Origin: SAR86 cluster bacterium
GTDB taxonomy: Bacteria; Pseudomonadota; Gammaproteobacteria; Magnimaribacterales; TMED112
Direction: 5' to 3'
Assembly: GCA_023703555.1 (NCBI GenBank)
Contig: CP097968.1
Location: forward strand, 765,168-829,167
Length of the DNA stretch: 64,000 nt
Program-made: the position numbers
Part shown: piece after piece, positions 24,001 to 33,000 of the stretch
How positions within the stretch are numbered: position 1 is the stretch's first letter
Layout of the letters: the number at the start of each line of letters is the position of its first letter

Positions 24001-27000
24001 AGTTTTGCTATTTTCGATAATTTAAATGTAAGTAGATTTAATGCGATATATTTTCCATTTATAGCAAGAATTAAAATTAAAAAAGTAATAAGGCTATTCA
24101 GAATTAATACAGAAAGAACTAAATAAGTAAATCTGTCAGGACTGCTTTTTACTTCTGGAAAACTTGGATTATCAATAATTTTAAATAGATAGTTTTCGTT
24201 ATTAGTAAAGAGTAGTTTCTGTAATTCATTTTGTATCATCCCTGCCAAAATTCTTCTCACATCAATTGACTCTGTTGAATTAAGCTGTGTTGTAAGAAAT
24301 TCTAAATAATTTTGATGCTCTTGCTTGTGCTTATTTTTTAAATAGATATCAAGCTCGTTGACGACAAGCTCTAAAAGCTCTTTGGCAAAATAAGGTGATA
24401 TATGAGTTACAGACATTTTTATAAATCCCTCATCATCAATACTTGCTTTGAAGTTCTCTTTTATAAAGCTACCATGAGCCTCAGTCAGTGTTGGGAAAGA
24501 GATAAATTCGCCGTTTTTATAAATTTGACTTTTGTAAGAGTATGATTTTGTAGCTATATTAAATTTTTCTGCTGCAATGAGTTTTGAAATTATGTAATCA
24601 TTGTAAAGGGCTTGCTCAAAAAATGTCTTTGATCTAATGGTTACCAATGCTTCCGAGGTTACCCCTCTGGATGAACTAGTAGGCCCACCAACAAGTTGTG
24701 CAAGACCTGCAAACCCCGAGCTTGCAGATGTATCGTCAGAAGACCTTGGCATATATATTGCTTCTGATTTGTATGAATTTGGAATGCCAAGAAGAATGGC
24801 AACAACAGTCGTCATTACAATAAAATTTAAAATAACATATAACTGTATAGATTTAGTAACCGCTTTTAAAATTTCCTTCCAGGAATAATCTTTTACTTTT
24901 TCGCTCATAACTTAAAAACTACTTGGTGCCCAGGGCCGGACTTGAACCGGCACGAAGTTGCCTTCGAGGGATTTTAAGTCCCTTGTGTCTACCAATTTCA
25001 CCACCTGGGCTATAAAAAGTCAAAATTTACTTTTTGCTCTTTTTCTCTATCATCAAGGTCATCATATTTTAATCTATATAAATTATTTTTCTTGATCACA
25101 GATTTTAGAATCTCCATTGTTTTGTTTAATTCTTCACTATATTTGTAGAGAGCAGCAGTATCTTTGGGGAAACAAGCGCCTCCAAAACCTCGTTTACCAT
25201 CAAATCCCGGTACTTGCATATGTGATTTTCCAATTCTTGCATCTTTGCTAACTACTGTTATGAAGTGATTCCAATCACTATCAGTGTTTGATAGTTTAAA
25301 AATGTCATATAGCTCATTAAAAAATAATACTTTTGTTGCTAGGAAGGCATTGATAGAATATTTTATCAATGAAGCAGAAGCTAAATCAGTAAAATGAAAA
25401 TCATTAGATTTGCAGATTGAGTTCTTTATGTAGCATTTCTTTACATATTCACAATCTTCTTTTTCACCGCCAAGGATAACAAATTGAGAATTTTCAAAAT
25501 CATAATCAGCATGAGCTTCTCTAAGAAATTCTGGATTGTAGACAAGCTTTTCTCTAGTTTTATAAATCTCTAATAAAAAATTAGGTAGTACAGTGCTTTT
25601 TATTACACATATAACATCAGGCAGGAGATCATTTAATTGTCCGAGAACTAATTCAATTATTGAATTATCTTGAAAACCATTTTTTCTCATGGGTGTAGGC
25701 AAACAAACAAAAATTAGGTCAGGAGAAAAAGCAACAAGATCTTCTACATTAGTGTTAAGTTTTGGATCAACTGAAAAAATTTTAGTATCCACAGAAAAAC
25801 CATTCTTAATAGCATTTCCTACAAACCCGAGCCCTATTATTCCTACTTTAAGCATATTATGATTTTAAATCGTTAATTGTATCAATATCTTTAGAACTTG
25901 CATCATTCATTATATAAGGGATTATCTCTTCGTTTGGAATCTTGCTAAATTTTCGAAAAGATTTATCTGAAAAAATATAGATAGCTCCATTTGGCATGTA
26001 GCATTTTGGCAGCTCTTGTCTGTTTTGGAAGGGAGCATTGTTATTAAAAGCTCCTGAAAGATTTCCCGTCTCGTTTAAATAAAAAGCTTTTAAATGCGAA
26101 GAGCTTGTCTCTAAAACTGAAATAATAAGTGAATCATCTGGAGATGATTTAAATAATTCAATACAGTCCTCAATATGTACTTCTGTTCTCAGTGGAGAAG
26201 TTGGCTGTAATAGTATCCACACAATTTCTTCGTCATCAAAATAATGTGATGCATGCTTAATAACACTATTCATCGTAGCACTATCTGAGCAATACTGCTC
26301 CGGTCTTCTAAGAAAAAAAATATTTTTATCTGAGGAATAGCTATTCAATTCAGGCATATTTGTAGAGAGTACAATTTTCTCAATATTTTTAACTTTCTTC
26401 GCGCTTGATAATGTCCATTCAATAAGTGGCTTATCTCTAAAGTTTTGTATGTTCTTTTTCTTTATTCCTTTAGACCCTGCTCTTGCAGGAATAAGGATAT
26501 AAAACTTTTTTTTATAATTTTTCATGAATAGTAGACAAAATTCTTTCTGTTGTTGGCGAGCAACAAAAGAAACTTGGGTTCATTAAATTCCCTTTATTGT
26601 AATTTAGTCTTTTCCTGGTTTGCAATGTAAGCATTTTTCCTCCTGCTTCTTCAAGAACAAGTTGGGCTGCGGCAGTATCCCATTCCATTGTTGGACCAAG
26701 TCTTGGATATATATCGGCAGAACCTTCAGCTACAGCACAAATTTTTAGTGAACTTCCATAACTAACGACCTCCACCTTGATAGCAGAGGATAATATCTTT
26801 ATAAAATTTTCAGTTTCTTTATTGGTATGTGATCTGCTTGCAACAATAGTTAATTTTTCCCCAACCTCACTTTTAACAGAAATCTGTTCTTGATTTTTAT
26901 ACGAGCCTTTTCCTTTTTGAGCACAATATAAAGATTGAGTAGCGGGGGCATAAACCAGTCCAAAAATTGGATAATTCTTAAAGCATAAAGCCACATTAAT

Positions 27001-30000: not shown

Positions 30001-33000
30001 TTATTTTTCCTCCCTTCTGGATTAGTGAAGACAATCAGCTCAAGATCATTTTCTTTTTTGACTTTATCTCTAAAGGCATACATCTCTTTAAACTTCCACA
30101 AGGTATCAACGTGCAAAAGTGGGAATGGTATTTTTCCAGGGAAAAATGCTTTTTTTGCTAAATGTAGCATTACAGAACTGTCTTTTCCTAATGAATAAAG
30201 CATCACAGGATTTTTTGCTTCAGAAAACGCTTCTCTGATTATGTGAATCGATTCAGATTCTAGTGTCTCTATGTGAGTTTTCATTATTTAATGGAGGCTG
30301 AGAACGGAATCGAACCGATGTTAACGGAGTTGCAGTCCGCTGCATGACCACTCTGCCACTCAGCCAGTTGAGTAGATTTTAAACTAATAATTGTAAGAGT
30401 CATCTTTAAAAGGCCCATTTTCATCAACAGAAATATACTCTTGCTGTTGCTGGGTTAATTTTGTTATTTTCCCTCCAAACCCCTCAACCATTAATGATGC
30501 AACTTCTTCATCTAGTCCTTTTGGCAAAACCTTAATATACACTTCTTTATCAACATCGGCTTTTTTAGCATGTGCATTTTTAAATAGCATGATTTGTGCA
30601 AGAACTTGATTACAAAAGGAGCCATCCATAACTCTGCTTGGATGCCCAGTTCCTAAAGCTAAATTTACTAGGCGCCCTTCACCAAGGAGCAATAAATAGT
30701 CATTGTCTGCTCTTATAACCTTATGGACCCCAGGTTTAATTTCATACCAATCATATTTTTTTAGATAGTTAACATCTATTTCATTATCAAAGTGTCCTAT
30801 ATTACATATTACACAAGCAGTTTTCAGAGCATCAAGCATAAATCTATCTAAAACATTTATGTTTCCTGTAGCTGTAACTACAAGATCATATTTTTTTAAA
30901 AGATTTGAATCTATATTTTTGCCCTCATTATTAATTATTCCATCTGCATAGGCTGAAACAACAGAATACCCATCAAAACATGCTTGCATTGCACATATAG
31001 GGTCTACTTCTATAATATCCACAATCATTTTCTGATTGTTTAATGCATCTGCAGTACCTTTACCAACGTCCCCATAACCAATTACCAAGGCTTTTTTACC
31101 TGACAATAGCATATCTGTGCCTCTTTTAATGGCATCATCAATGCTATGCCTACAGCCATACTTATTATCATTTTTTGATTTAGTTATTGAATCATTAACA
31201 TTAATAGCTGGGACCCTTAGTTCTCCTTTTGCCAGCATTTCCTTTAATCTATGTACTCCAGTTGTTGTTTCTTCTGAAATGCCATGTATAAAATTAAGCA
31301 TTTCTGGGTATTCTTGATGTACTTTGATAGTAAGATCCCCACCATCATCAAGAATCATATTGGCATCCCAAGGTTTTCCATCTTTGCATATTGTTTGCTC
31401 TAAGCACCACTCATATTCCTCTTCTGATTCTCCTTTCCATGCAAAAACTGGAATACCAGCAGCAGCGATAGCAGCAGCAGCATGATCTTGTGTAGAAAAA
31501 ATATTACAGGAAGACCATCTAACCTCAGCACCTAAATCAATGAGTGTTTCAATAAGAACAGCTGTTTGGATAGTCATATGAATGCAGCCCATAATCTTGG
31601 CACCTTTGAGAGGCTGCTCATCTTTGTACTTTGCTCTTAATGCCATGAGCGCTGGCATTTCATCTTGAGCCATTAAAATTTCTTGTCTGCCAAATTCAGC
31701 AAGACTAATATCTTTTACCTTAAAATCTTGCATTAATCTTCGTAGTAAGAATATCTCTCTATATCATCTTCTACAGTCTCTTGGCCGAACTGAATTTCAA
31801 TAATCTTGCATGTCTCTTCAAATGGATTGGTTATTTGATGCCAGTCGCCCAACTCAACCGTAAGATGATCAAATCTAGAGAGATTAATTTCTTTCGTGCT
31901 TTCAGGAGATTCTTTTGAATAATTAACAACACACTGGCCTTCAGAGACTAACCATATTTCGCTTCTTTTGAAATGCTTTTGCAAGCTCATGCCTTTTCCA
32001 GGTTTTATTATAAGCTCTTTTACCTTTACACCTTCAGACTCAAATAAATTATAAAAATTCCCCCAAATCCTCTCTTCGCCATCATATTGCCAGTTTTTCA
32101 GTATCCAGCTACTAGAATTTTTTTTGTCATCTCCTCCAACACTAAAAACAAAATTTACCCCCTCAACGCTCATTTCTGGAATGTTATCTTTGCCTCTATC
32201 TCCACCGTTACAGAAATTTATTTCACTTTCAGGATACATATTCTTAATTTTTACTAGTGCTTGGGTTGCGCTTCCAAGTTCATCGTCTTCAAAGTCAATT
32301 ACTTCATCCACTTCTTTGACATTTTCTAGAACTGATTTTCTTTCCTCAAATGGCATAAAGGCTTTACCTTTTTTATTTACCAACCACTGATCACTATTAA
32401 GGGCAATTATTAAGTAGTCTCCATATGCTTTTGCTGACTTAATATAAGATATATGCCCGGAATGAATAGGGTCAAAGCCGCCGCTTACAACTGTAATTTT
32501 CATGTGCTAATTTTAAACTAATTTAATTGGCTTTTCCCAGAGAAAACCTTGGTTTTCCCGACCAAAATGCCCATAGTTTGTTGTTGTTTTGTAGATAGGT
32601 TCAAGAAGATTGAGATCATTTATGATGCCGCTTGGTGTTAAATCAAAATTTGATTTTACCAATTGCTCAATTTCATTAAGATTTAAAGCCTCAGATTCAA
32701 AAGTATTAATGAATACAGAAACTGGCTCACAAACTCCAATTGCATACGAAGCCTGAACCTCGCAATATTTACAAAGATCTTCACTTACTAATGATTTTGC
32801 CACTCTGCGCAGTGCATAAGCTGCGGAGCGATCAACCTTAGAGGGGTCTTTCCCAGAAAAAGCCCCTCCACCATGACGAGCCATACCTCCGTAAGTATCA
32901 ACAATAATCTTGCGGCCAGTTAAGCCACAGTCACCTACAGGCCCGCCTATTTCAAAACGTCCTGCTGGATTAATAAAAAATTTAGTCTTATCATCTAAAA

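Follow-up and report, generated by a model that had tools for sequence, protein, structure and literature searches.

Four genes in a 64-kb stretch of DNA from a SAR86 bacterium (the window) probably form a self-contained sulfate-activation cassette, in which CysD, a CysN/CysC fusion and CysQ, together with a DUF2061 protein in a putative accessory role, would turn out PAPS for sulfated products, most plausibly a variable surface polysaccharide. SAR86 is a very abundant ocean bacterium, and to our knowledge this organism is represented only by single-cell or metagenome assemblies. The window is assigned to SAR86 because its GyrA shares 88-92% identity with NCBI proteins labelled 'Gammaproteobacteria bacterium TMED112' and 'SAR86 cluster bacterium'.

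Organization of the cassette

The cassette occupies positions 26512..30284 on the minus strand. Its genes and their immediate neighbours are, from upstream to downstream:

30292..30365, minus strand: tRNA-Cys(GCA), bounding the block upstream (Rfam 60.6 bits; ARAGORN; sequence)
29391..30284, minus strand: cysD, ATP sulfurylase small subunit (NF009214 490 bits, cutoff 413; PF01507 1.3e-54)
27517..29391, minus strand: cysN/cysC fusion, sulfurylase GTPase subunit and APS kinase (NF004035 853.6 bits, cutoff 715, residues 3-623)
27296..27517, minus strand: DUF2061, 73-aa helical-hairpin protein (PF09834, E 1.1e-12, 48.6 bits, cutoff 23.1)
26512..27306, minus strand: cysQ, predicted PAP (3',5'-bisphosphate) nucleotidase (TIGR01331 226.4 bits, cutoff 228.8)
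25857..26525, minus strand: neuA/pseF-like CMP-nonulosonate cytidylyltransferase (PF02348 7.3e-21; TIGR03584 108.7 bits, under cutoff)
25010..25855, minus strand: short UDP-glucose/GDP-mannose dehydrogenase (UGDH)-like protein, 281 aa (PF00984 and PF03721 only)
24924..25010, minus strand: tRNA-Leu(TAA), bounding the block downstream (Rfam 59.5 bits; ARAGORN; sequence)

The first-pass annotation had placed four overlapping ORFs at these positions, and reading the sequence bears this out: cysD overlaps cysNC by 1 nt, cysNC overlaps DUF2061 by 1 nt (TAGTG, with the DUF2061 GTG start on the cysNC stop and GGAG upstream), DUF2061 overlaps cysQ by 11 nt (the next in-frame GTG, as an alternative cysQ start, would leave a 7-nt gap) and cysQ overlaps the neuA-like gene by 14 nt.

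CysD matches NF009214 at equivalog level, and the fusion protein joins the CysN GTPase domains to a C-terminal APS kinase in one polypeptide (GTP_EFTU 19-211, GTP-eEF1A_C 328-426 and APS_kinase 455-604 by Pfam); the two are predicted to be the PAPS-making pair. CysD and the CysN domain would convert sulfate and ATP to APS in a GTP-driven reaction, and the fused CysC domain would phosphorylate APS to PAPS. Sulfotransferases would then use PAPS and release PAP, here through a Sulfotransfer_1 enzyme of the adjoining glycan island and in relatives through enzymes beside or inside the cassette, and CysQ would hydrolyze PAP, which is otherwise inhibitory to sulfotransferases. The cysQ product scores 2.4 bits under the TIGR01331 equivalog cutoff; its closest solved relative is Bacteroides CysQ 3b8b (4e-49), with inositol monophosphatases at about 7e-18, and the other IMPase-fold gene of the window (569..1327) reaches 76 bits on the CysQ model.

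tRNA genes and the surface-glycan island

The two tRNA genes that bracket the block are absent from the first-pass annotation, and the bracket is kept in relatives. The tRNA-Cys gene lies 18 nt past the ahcY stop and 7 nt ahead of the cysD ATG, and at least 13 relatives likewise have it in front of cysD. At the other end, the first base of the tRNA-Leu gene overlaps the stop codon of the UGDH-like gene, and the rest of the island lies beyond. The earlier claim that the cassette runs straight into neuA and the island therefore holds for the overlapping neuA-like gene, but tRNA-Leu interrupts the run before most of the island. The UGDH-like protein has no C-terminal UDP-binding domain; it is of about the same length in relatives, 13 of which have homologues. 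In locus L113 the interval from tRNA-Cys to tRNA-Leu holds the module and two sulfotransferase genes and nothing else.

The island and its sulfotransferase are located as follows:

4288..24908, minus strand: surface-glycan island (Pfam scans; GC 0.29-0.32)
11801..12619, minus strand: PAPS-dependent sulfotransferase (Sulfotransfer_1), inside the island (PF00685 4.6e-23, 82.4 bits, cutoff 22)

The island comprises a Wzz-like ORF, gmd, an fcl-like gene, neuC, two GFO oxidoreductases, a polysialyltransferase-like gene, neuB, an EpsG polymerase, GT2 glycosyltransferases, an ABC exporter, an acetyltransferase, the sulfotransferase, an epimerase, a Wza/GfcC-like gene and YjbH. Its GC content compares with 0.34 in the module and 0.36-0.40 in the core flank. 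The sulfotransferase was rightly annotated as PAPS-type, since in addition to its Sulfotransfer_1 match an alignment to SULT1B1 finds its motifs intact (PKSGNTW 5'-PSB loop, RNGFDVLSS 3'-PB and the catalytic His of KEH). It lies 14 kb from cysQ with a tRNA gene in between, and is presumed to be the consumer of the PAPS made by the cassette. PAPS-synthesis genes and a sulfotransferase gene thus share one polysaccharide locus, the module abutting neuA and the island, and the same is seen in relatives.

Probable absence of an assimilatory pathway

The genes cysDNC and cysQ are classic members of the cys regulon, and the most common setting of distant DUF2061 genes is an assimilatory operon that also carries cysH and sulfite reductase. 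The cassette might accordingly be the first half of assimilatory sulfate reduction, with cysH and cysIJ elsewhere and PAPS passing mainly to cysteine, a reading that we consider very improbable. A phmmer search of the 64-kb window detected neither CysH-like nor sulfite-reductase-like ORFs, in agreement with the first-pass annotation, which had seen no cysH, cysI or cysJ there. Sulfite reductase is not recognisable in any genome of the SAR86 order analysed (PMC11582366), as an earlier report had also concluded (PMC3358033), and cysK is mostly missing outside two groups (PMC11582366); the statement on sulfite reductase comes from these surveys of other SAR86 genomes, our own search having covered the window. 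Since the order is reported without sulfite reductase, PAPS cannot feed cysteine synthesis and the output of the cassette should be sulfated products. The surveys state 'no support for sulfate incorporation', which shows that the cassette was overlooked or left undiscussed there. A single PAPS_reduct-like neighbour is present in a relative; it reaches 74 bits where the CysH model requires 154, and its match ends at 195 of 244 model positions. Sulfotransferases are repeatedly encoded next to or within the cassette, as described below.

Conservation in relatives and the sulfate acceptor

The four genes are intact, as far as the contig reaches, in 46/46 close-relative marine metagenome loci (contigs). 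Identities on shared contigs are 82% for AhcY, 81% for MetK, 80% for CysD, 61% for CysN, 61% for CysC, 66% for DUF2061 and 51% for CysQ. The cassette is vertically inherited in the subclade and moves as a unit, and its usual site, flanked by tRNA-Cys and tRNA-Leu, is where the hypervariable glycan island begins.

Sulfotransferase genes lie directly 3' of cysQ in L003-L008 (Sulfotransfer_3 and Arylsulfotran_2), L096, L100, L105 and, as two copies, L113; they are found inside the cassette, between DUF2061 and cysQ, in L131 and L135, and at most 10 kb from it in L092, L106 and L115. Pfam confirmed them individually in L092, L106, L113 (both copies), L115, L131 and L135, and in a set of 108 flanking ORFs without assignment, drawn from 17 loci, it recognized Sulfotransfer_1 in six, Sulfotransfer_3 in six and Sulfotransfer_2 in three. 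A complete assimilatory pathway elsewhere and the loss of the sulfotransferase from module-bearing relatives had been set beforehand as the points on which the reading could be refuted; the published SAR86 surveys favour the reading on the first, and on the second, such enzymes recur in these relatives close to or within the cassette. With the cassette kept together in 46 loci, this supports the original proposal that its PAPS serves sulfation and not cysteine synthesis.

One group of relatives has the cassette between pheT and metK, with Sulfotransfer_3 and Arylsulfotran_2 genes and with glycan genes absent in between. This placement of cassette and sulfotransferases away from glycan genes indicates that the acceptor may be other than a glycan, in which case PAPS would serve mainly sulfolipids, small phenolic or other metabolites, or proteins; the acceptor is also not readable from the sulfotransferase family, and the window enzyme resembles cytosolic small-molecule SULTs most closely. 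A mainly non-glycan use is possible but in our judgement unlikely, because the window sulfotransferase has glycosyltransferase and acetyltransferase genes on either side, in a polysaccharide locus equipped for export, sugar-nucleotide genes directly follow the cassette in most relatives, and the combination of PAPS genes and sulfotransferases in a polysaccharide locus is the hallmark of sulfated capsules in the literature. We thus infer a glycan as the most probable acceptor.

DUF2061, a partner of sulfate-activating enzymes

The DUF2061 ORF (27296..27517) is missing from the gene list of the source record, and small hydrophobic ORFs are often spurious. That it is a bystander in the gap between cysNC and cysQ, functionally unlinked to either, is nevertheless hardly credible. 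The protein matches PF09834 over model positions 1-52 of 52, at an E value of order 1e-12; it has 72 homologues at 41-100% identity (59-77% across dozens of contigs), and ten residues are invariant across phyla (R8, K12, R17, T24, K49, Y53, H56, E57, R58 and W60).

Its genomic partners are equally consistent. Sulfate-activation or sulfate-reduction clusters house about 73 of the 80 distant homologues, which come from at least five phyla: cysD, cysN, cysC or cysQ lies within 1 kb of DUF2061 in 63 loci, a cysH-like gene or sulfite reductase adjoins it in a further eight and a sirohaem methylase in one more, while the neighbours are unrelated in seven. In-frame fusions occur in five genomes, as CysN-DUF2061 (L027, L078 and L081) and DUF2061-CysC (L034 and L085), one of the five being a cultured Roseivirga isolate. 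The fusions and the cross-phylum synteny effectively refute a bystander, and they answer the co-occurrence check with cysNC proposed in the first-pass annotation in the affirmative. Because the 80 loci are the ones that best match the window protein, the sulfur link holds for a subfamily; and since DUF2061 associates just as much with assimilatory clusters, its tie is to sulfate activation generally and not to glycan sulfation. Tandem duplications of DUF2061 are also seen, and a sister clade occurs in T4-like marine phages next to an APS-kinase-like gene. DUF2061 is therefore a widespread partner of sulfate-activating enzymes.

The AlphaFold model of the window protein is a hairpin of two helices (H6-31/H35-63, pLDDT 73.5). 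The family is described in Pfam as a 'predicted membrane protein', and the window protein had been annotated as two-TM; this stands for the window clade, which has two 17-mers with Kyte-Doolittle values of 2.0-2.2, but not for distant DUF2061 proteins, with values of 0.5-1.5. Given the low hydrophobicity of distant and fused DUF2061 proteins, anchoring in the membrane may be limited to part of the family. Judging from the fusion geometry, both ends of the hairpin are probably cytoplasmic, and the invariant basic and aromatic residues listed above, T24 excepted, would lie at this cytoplasmic end.

No sulfate permease gene is present in or beside the module, and the multi-TM ORFs of the window are an RND pump, PntB, a GT4 priming transferase, EpsG and an ABC exporter. 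DUF2061 could then itself take up sulfate, as a minimal channel or carrier formed by an oligomer, in place of the permease of other PAPS operons: it fills the fourth slot that a sulfate permease takes beside cysNC, cysD and cysQ in the Cobetia operon (see below), recognised sulfate permeases of SAR86 are confined to the 'Suzuki' family (PMC11582366), the window clade has two TM-grade helices plus invariant basic residues, and the tandem duplications suggest a multimer. We do not think that DUF2061 is a sulfate permease, and regard an uptake role as unlikely. Distant and fused forms are too weakly hydrophobic for a channel, the conserved charged residues are at the cytoplasmic ends, outside the membrane span, and phages carry DUF2061 with a kinase and with no other uptake logic. 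In L062 and L068 a PiT-family permease also accompanies DUF2061, and in Lutibacter its gene directly follows cysN; we take this family to include the sulfate permease CysP. Our best guess is that DUF2061 is a membrane adaptor for APS-handling enzymes, an accessory subunit on which the enzymes that make and use APS would dock and which, in the window clade, would tether them at the membrane.

Comparison with known systems

A PAPS-for-sulfation cassette is a known kind of system. The chemically verified sulfated capsule locus of Cobetia marina KMM 1449 contains cysN/cysC, cysD, cysQ and a sulfate permease gene (PMC11766843), and the sulfated capsule cluster of Vibrio sp. KMM 8419 contains second copies of cysC, cysN and cysD (PMC11641403). 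As in these loci, the SAR86 cysN/cysC fusion, cysD and cysQ lie in or abut a capsule locus with sulfotransferases and would combine PAPS synthesis with PAP removal. Unlike the Cobetia operon, the SAR86 cassette has no sulfate permease gene and carries the 73-aa DUF2061 in fourth place; unlike both, it is bracketed by tRNA genes. It should be a sole copy, in contrast to the 'second copy' of Vibrio, because its host probably lacks the assimilatory pathway. Sulfation of the Cobetia polymer has been verified chemically, whereas that of the SAR86 polymer is predicted.

NodP/NodQ of rhizobia and RaxP/RaxQ of Xanthomonas oryzae are CysD and CysN/C paralogues dedicated to the sulfotransferases NodH and RaxST. 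The SAR86 pair resembles them in that CysD and CysNC would feed PAPS to a dedicated sulfotransferase and not to cysteine synthesis. The acceptor is a lipo-chitooligosaccharide for NodPQ and a peptide for RaxPQ, and their hosts also have a housekeeping assimilatory pathway; we know of no cysQ or DUF2061 in either unit. Flavobacteriaceae assimilatory operons, consisting of Rrf2, DUF2061, cysH-like, cysD, cysN, sulfite reductase, cobA and sirohaem synthase genes, likewise have a DUF2061 homologue directly beside APS-producing or APS-consuming enzymes, but unlike SAR86 they possess the reductase branch (cysH, sulfite reductase and sirohaem genes) and no cysC or cysQ, and their product is sulfide for cysteine.

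The window protein, with its full-length model match and all the invariant residues, is a regular member of PF09834. The literature on this family deals with iron/Fur-regulated or stress-linked members (Caulobacter CC_0155, Shewanella SO_4740 and Pseudomonas PA3237) and not with sulfur metabolism, whereas the SAR86 protein sits in a sulfate-activation cassette. The link between DUF2061 and sulfate activation is the newest result of this analysis. We tentatively suggest, as one possibility among others, that DUF2061 is an overlooked conserved subunit of sulfate activation that couples APS production to its consumption or brings in sulfate. SAR86, with no known permease or reduction pathway, might in this way channel seawater sulfate through PAPS into a sulfated, phage-facing glycan, and T4-like phages, with their own copy and an APS-kinase-like gene, may take over this step.

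Organization of the PAPS module

The cysD-cysNC-DUF2061-cysQ module occupies 26512..30284 of the window, on the minus strand. Its genes, the gene that follows it and two tRNA genes nearby are:

30292..30365, minus strand, tRNA-Cys(GCA), found by Rfam and ARAGORN
29391..30284, minus strand, cysD (NF009214, 490 bits, cutoff 413)
27517..29391, minus strand, cysN/cysC fusion, cysNC (NF004035, 854 bits, cutoff 715)
27296..27517, minus strand, 73-aa DUF2061 ORF (PF09834, 1.1e-12)
26512..27306, minus strand, cysQ (TIGR01331, 226.4 bits, cutoff 228.8; best PDB relative 3b8b)
25857..26525, minus strand, neuA/pseF-like cytidylyltransferase gene, directly after cysQ
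24924..25010, minus strand, tRNA-Leu(TAA), found by Rfam and ARAGORN

The identities that the first-pass annotation gave to the module genes hold: CysD, CysNC and DUF2061 are confirmed by curated models, and CysQ, which scores slightly below the model cutoff, has the Bacteroides CysQ 3b8b as its closest solved structure (4e-49), with inositol monophosphatases far behind. The overlaps of 1 to 14 nt reported there were also found, the successive junctions from cysD to the neuA-like gene measuring 1, 1, 11 and 14 nt when read from the sequence. The DUF2061 gene (27296..27517, equivalent to 11875..12096 of locus L001) is missing from the gene list of GCA_902518645.1, where a 61-aa antisense ORF is annotated instead. 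In agreement with the reported absence of cysH, cysI and cysJ, no CysH- or sulfite-reductase-like ORF was found within the 64-kb window. No riboswitch was detected by Rfam in the window, the two tRNAs being the sole matches, and promoter and terminator predictions did not exceed shuffle expectation.

Genomic context of the module

The first-pass annotation had the module running straight into neuA and the glycan island. The 14-nt overlap of cysQ with the neuA-like gene stands, but the two tRNA genes had been missed, and their positions show that six genes, from cysD to a short UDP-glucose/GDP-mannose dehydrogenase-like (UGDH-like) gene, form a tRNA-bracketed block. The packing is tight: the ahcY stop codon is followed by 18 nt, tRNA-Cys, 7 nt (TTAAATA) after the CCA end and the cysD ATG, which lacks a Shine-Dalgarno sequence; at the other end the first base of tRNA-Leu overlaps the UGDH-like stop codon, and the next island gene begins 15 nt past tRNA-Leu. 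The bracket is kept in at least 13 relatives, and in L003 and L119 the module lies outside it, indicating that the module relocates as a unit. The UGDH-like protein (25010..25855, 281 aa) has no match to the C-terminal UDP-binding domain and is probably not a pseudogene product, since its length is about the same in 13 relatives.

Upstream of the module lie pheS/pheT, metK, a cytidylyltransferase-cupin gene and ahcY. The cytidylyltransferase-cupin gene (31733..32503) encodes a 256-aa protein in which a cytidylyltransferase-like domain is fused to a mannose-6-phosphate-isomerase-type cupin, and is kept between metK and ahcY in relatives. Downstream, the island of about 20 kb carries gmd, fcl-like, neuC, neuB, polysialyltransferase-like, EpsG, GT2 and ABC exporter genes, together with genes for an acetyltransferase, a sulfotransferase, a Wza/GfcC-like protein and YjbH. 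GC content is lowest in the island (0.29-0.32), intermediate in the module (0.34) and highest in the core flank (0.36-0.40). The 836-aa export protein of the island (6236..8746; Poly_export, three SLBB domains and a GfcC C-terminal domain) adjoins the YjbH homologue (4288..6252), and the two resemble a group-4-capsule export set, here in a streamlined marine genome. For two island ORFs (23988..24908, 306 aa, and 8743..9438, 231 aa) neither Pfam nor NCBIfam gave a match; the former has homologues in the relatives L091 and L127 and may be Wzz-like.

Conservation of the module in SAR86 and evidence for sulfation

SAR86 accounts for a few percent of surface-ocean bacteria. The window has the gene order gyrA-serC-aroA-cmk-rpsA, a gammaproteobacterial arrangement, and its GyrA shares 88-92% identity with proteins that NCBI lists under 'Gammaproteobacteria bacterium TMED112' and 'SAR86 cluster bacterium'. 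TMED112 being the GTDB name for the SAR86 family CHAB-I-7 (PMC11582366), the window is assigned to SAR86, probably to CHAB-I-7. Ribosomal protein S1 (41648..42961) has 437 aa and matches positions 4-433 of a 560-position model; the full-length members listed in its 90%-identity cluster all have this same length of 437 aa, and a C-terminally shortened S1 seems to be a feature of this SAR86 lineage.

SAR86 has been described as lacking a route for sulfate incorporation. Ramfelt et al. 2024 reported that a recognisable sulfite reductase is absent in all Magnimaribacterales genomes analysed, that cysK occurs in two groups only, and that a putative sulfate permease occurs in the 'Suzuki' family only (PMC11582366). 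Neither this paper nor PMC3358033 mentions cysDNC, cysQ or sulfotransferases, the supplements of the former do not mention cysN, cysQ or sulfotransferase, and a 2025 SAR86 preprint contains nothing about sulfate or polysaccharide.

A metagenome scan returned 49 loci, 46 of them with a DUF2061 at least 54% identical to the window protein, and the cysD-cysNC-DUF2061-cysQ order is intact wherever the contig is long enough. Identities on shared contigs (AhcY 82%, MetK 81%, CysD 80%, CysN 61%, CysC 61%, DUF2061 66% and CysQ 51%) fall in narrow ranges, so the module fits vertical inheritance. Sulfotransferases recur alongside it. The gene at 11801..12619, called a PAPS-type sulfotransferase in the first-pass annotation, indeed encodes a Sulfotransfer_1 protein in which the 5'-PSB loop (PKSGNTW), the 3'-PB motif (RNGFDVLSS) and the catalytic His are all retained, and is placed among glycosyltransferase and acetyltransferase genes. 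Sulfotransfer_3 and Arylsulfotran_2 genes come after the module in the relatives L003-L008, L096, L100 and L105. A Pfam search of 108 unassigned module-flanking ORFs from 17 loci yielded Sulfotransfer_1 (n=6), Sulfotransfer_3 (n=6) and Sulfotransfer_2 (n=3), and sulfotransferases were individually confirmed in L092, L106, L113, L115, L131 and L135. In L131 and L135 the gene sits between DUF2061 and cysQ; in L113 two sulfotransferase genes lie directly 3' of cysQ, and the interval from tRNA-Cys to tRNA-Leu holds the module and these two genes, nothing else. Finding these divergent sulfotransferases took the Pfam search in bulk and a local profile run iteratively; chained phmmer searches that started from three known ones added none.

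Two candidates were set aside. One from the iterated profile (L127, 9048-9923) received no Pfam confirmation as a sulfotransferase. A 201-aa PAPS_reduct-family protein encoded after tRNA-Cys in the glycan region of L003 (11044..11649) was rejected as CysH: it scores 74 bits where the model cutoff is 154, a level that CysD also reaches on that model, and the match ends at position 195 of 244.

The SAR86 literature, the conservation of the module and the recurrence of sulfotransferases beside or inside it in relatives that retain it together support the inference of the first-pass annotation that the module serves sulfation rather than cysteine synthesis. We infer that a glycan is the sulfate acceptor; in a variant in which the module lies between pheT and metK, the sulfotransferases occur without glycan context. 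Rhizobia and Xanthomonas offer the classic cases of dedicated CysD/CysNC paralogues. In marine Vibrio and Cobetia, a polysaccharide locus that combines PAPS synthesis genes with sulfotransferases has been described as the hallmark of a sulfated capsule (PMC11766843, PMC11641403). The PAPS module itself thus belongs to a known kind; what is new is that SAR86 possesses and conserves it, contrary to the published view that SAR86 does not incorporate sulfate, its form as a tRNA-bracketed, relocating cassette, and the evidence tying DUF2061 to sulfate activation in different phyla as well as in phages.

Association of DUF2061 with sulfate activation genes

The window DUF2061 is 59-77% identical to its counterparts across dozens of marine contigs. 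AlphaFold predicts a two-helix hairpin (residues 6-31 and 35-63, mean pLDDT 73.5) whose two hydrophobic segments are of transmembrane grade (Kyte-Doolittle 2.0-2.2), and no PDB sequence matches the DUF2061 profile. Ten residues are invariant (R8, K12, R17, T24, K49, Y53, H56, E57, R58 and W60).

A scan of named genomes returned at least 80 homologues of 37-51% identity. The best 80 listed come mostly from Flavobacteriaceae, and also from Alphaproteobacteria, Candidatus Thiodiazotropha, Aliarcobacter, Verrucomicrobiota, Omnitrophota, Planctomycetia and Victivallis. The co-occurrence of DUF2061 with cysNC considered in the first-pass annotation is borne out among these 80 loci: cysD, cysN, cysC or cysQ lies within 1 kb in 63, of which 28 have it within 100 bp or fused, a further eight have an adjacent cysH-like or sulfite reductase gene, one a sirohaem methylase gene, and seven unrelated neighbours. 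As the loci were ranked by likeness to the window protein, the sulfur link holds for a DUF2061 subfamily. Recurrent architectures are cysQ, tandem DUF2061, cysC, cysD, cysN; Rrf2, DUF2061, cysH-like, cysD, cysN, sulfite reductase, cobA, sirohaem synthase; and cysC, DUF2061; Aurantiacibacter has the window order, cysD, cysN(C), DUF2061, cysQ.

Among the matches listed, CysN-DUF2061 in-frame fusions occur in three alphaproteobacterial MAGs (L027 8585..10216, L078 8600..10231 and L081 3057..4715), and DUF2061-CysC in-frame fusions in two Roseivirga genomes, one of a cultured isolate (L034 9995..10849 and L085 9995..10843). The geometry of these fusions implies that both termini of the hairpin are cytoplasmic, and the invariant residues lie mostly at its cytoplasmic end. 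A family-wide protein search for fusions gave, among the matches listed, tandem flavobacterial proteins only; such double-DUF2061 proteins (134-148 aa) occur frequently in Flavobacteriaceae and are present also in Alphaproteobacteria. In two Rhodobacterales MAGs (L017 4597..7651 and L028 7043..10246) tandem DUF2061 follows a gene for RACo, the reductive activator of corrinoid proteins, and not sulfur genes, a different context for the family. Other DUF2061 genes have been reported as iron/Fur-regulated or stress-linked, and our literature search found no paper tying DUF2061, PF09834 or IPR018638 to sulfur.

DUF2061 in T4-like phages

A viral collection contains at least 574 DUF2061 relatives, and the best 80 of these, on IMG/VR contigs, share 58-74% identity with the window protein; deposited phage genomes gave one weak match only. 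No cys genes were found near the best 80. The genes around them are T4-like and encode UvsY, UvsW, a gp55-like sigma factor, gp47- and gp46-like proteins, family-B DNA polymerase, a gp41-like helicase and peptide deformylase. In about 70 of the 80 loci DUF2061 is preceded by a gene for a 142-aa P-loop kinase, which matches Pfam APS_kinase (42 bits against a cutoff of 21) and, equally well, the generic AAA_33, has the APS kinase 2yvu as its best PDB match, is 31% identical to the window CysC domain over 83 residues and retains the P-loop together with the LNADEIR, FS..GR and DFIAP motifs. This kinase corresponds to one half of phrog_10255 'kinase', and the product of a 141-aa gene following DUF2061 to the other half. 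Examples of this arrangement in uncultured T4-like marine phages are L199 3118..3546, L201 5986..6204 and L155 4206..4631. SAR86 and phage DUF2061 form two clean sister clades (45/45 and 80/80), 59% identical to each other and 35% to other members.

Proposed role of DUF2061 and implications

Two Lutibacter loci (L062 10648..11688 and L068 13113..14153) have a PiT-family transporter gene directly after cysN, in assimilatory clusters that include DUF2061 as well. PiT is the family of B. subtilis CysP, and the L062 protein matches PDB 6l85 (1e-14); the Lutibacter transporter is probably a CysP-type sulfate permease. A 482-aa multi-TM protein encoded after cysN in some flavobacterial clusters has no PDB match. 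It is attractive to regard DUF2061 as itself a sulfate transporter, as the sulfated-capsule operon of Cobetia has a sulfate permease at the place held by DUF2061 in SAR86 (PMC11766843) and most SAR86 lack a known sulfate permease (PMC11582366). However, this idea is weakened by the coexistence of DUF2061 with the Lutibacter PiT-family permease and by the weak hydrophobicity of many DUF2061 members (Kyte-Doolittle 0.5-1.5 in distant and fused versions). The common factor of the neighbours and fusion partners is APS, with CysDN as its maker and CysC and CysH-like proteins as its users, which favours an adaptor role: DUF2061 would be an accessory or adaptor of the sulfate-activating enzymes, membrane-anchored in the SAR86 clade.

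The sulfate-activation pathway, a subject of study for decades, was regarded as complete. Cross-phylum synteny, the CysN and CysC fusions and the phage copies amount to a testable functional assignment for a domain of unknown function whose members number in the thousands. The conserved PAPS cassette and the recurrent sulfotransferases indicate that at least one large SAR86 subclade uses sulfate, for sulfation and not for growth, and this subclade probably displays sulfated surface polysaccharides. This is relevant to recognition by phages and grazers, to where the sulfated polysaccharides in marine organic matter come from, and to the reading of 'missing pathways' in streamlined genomes.
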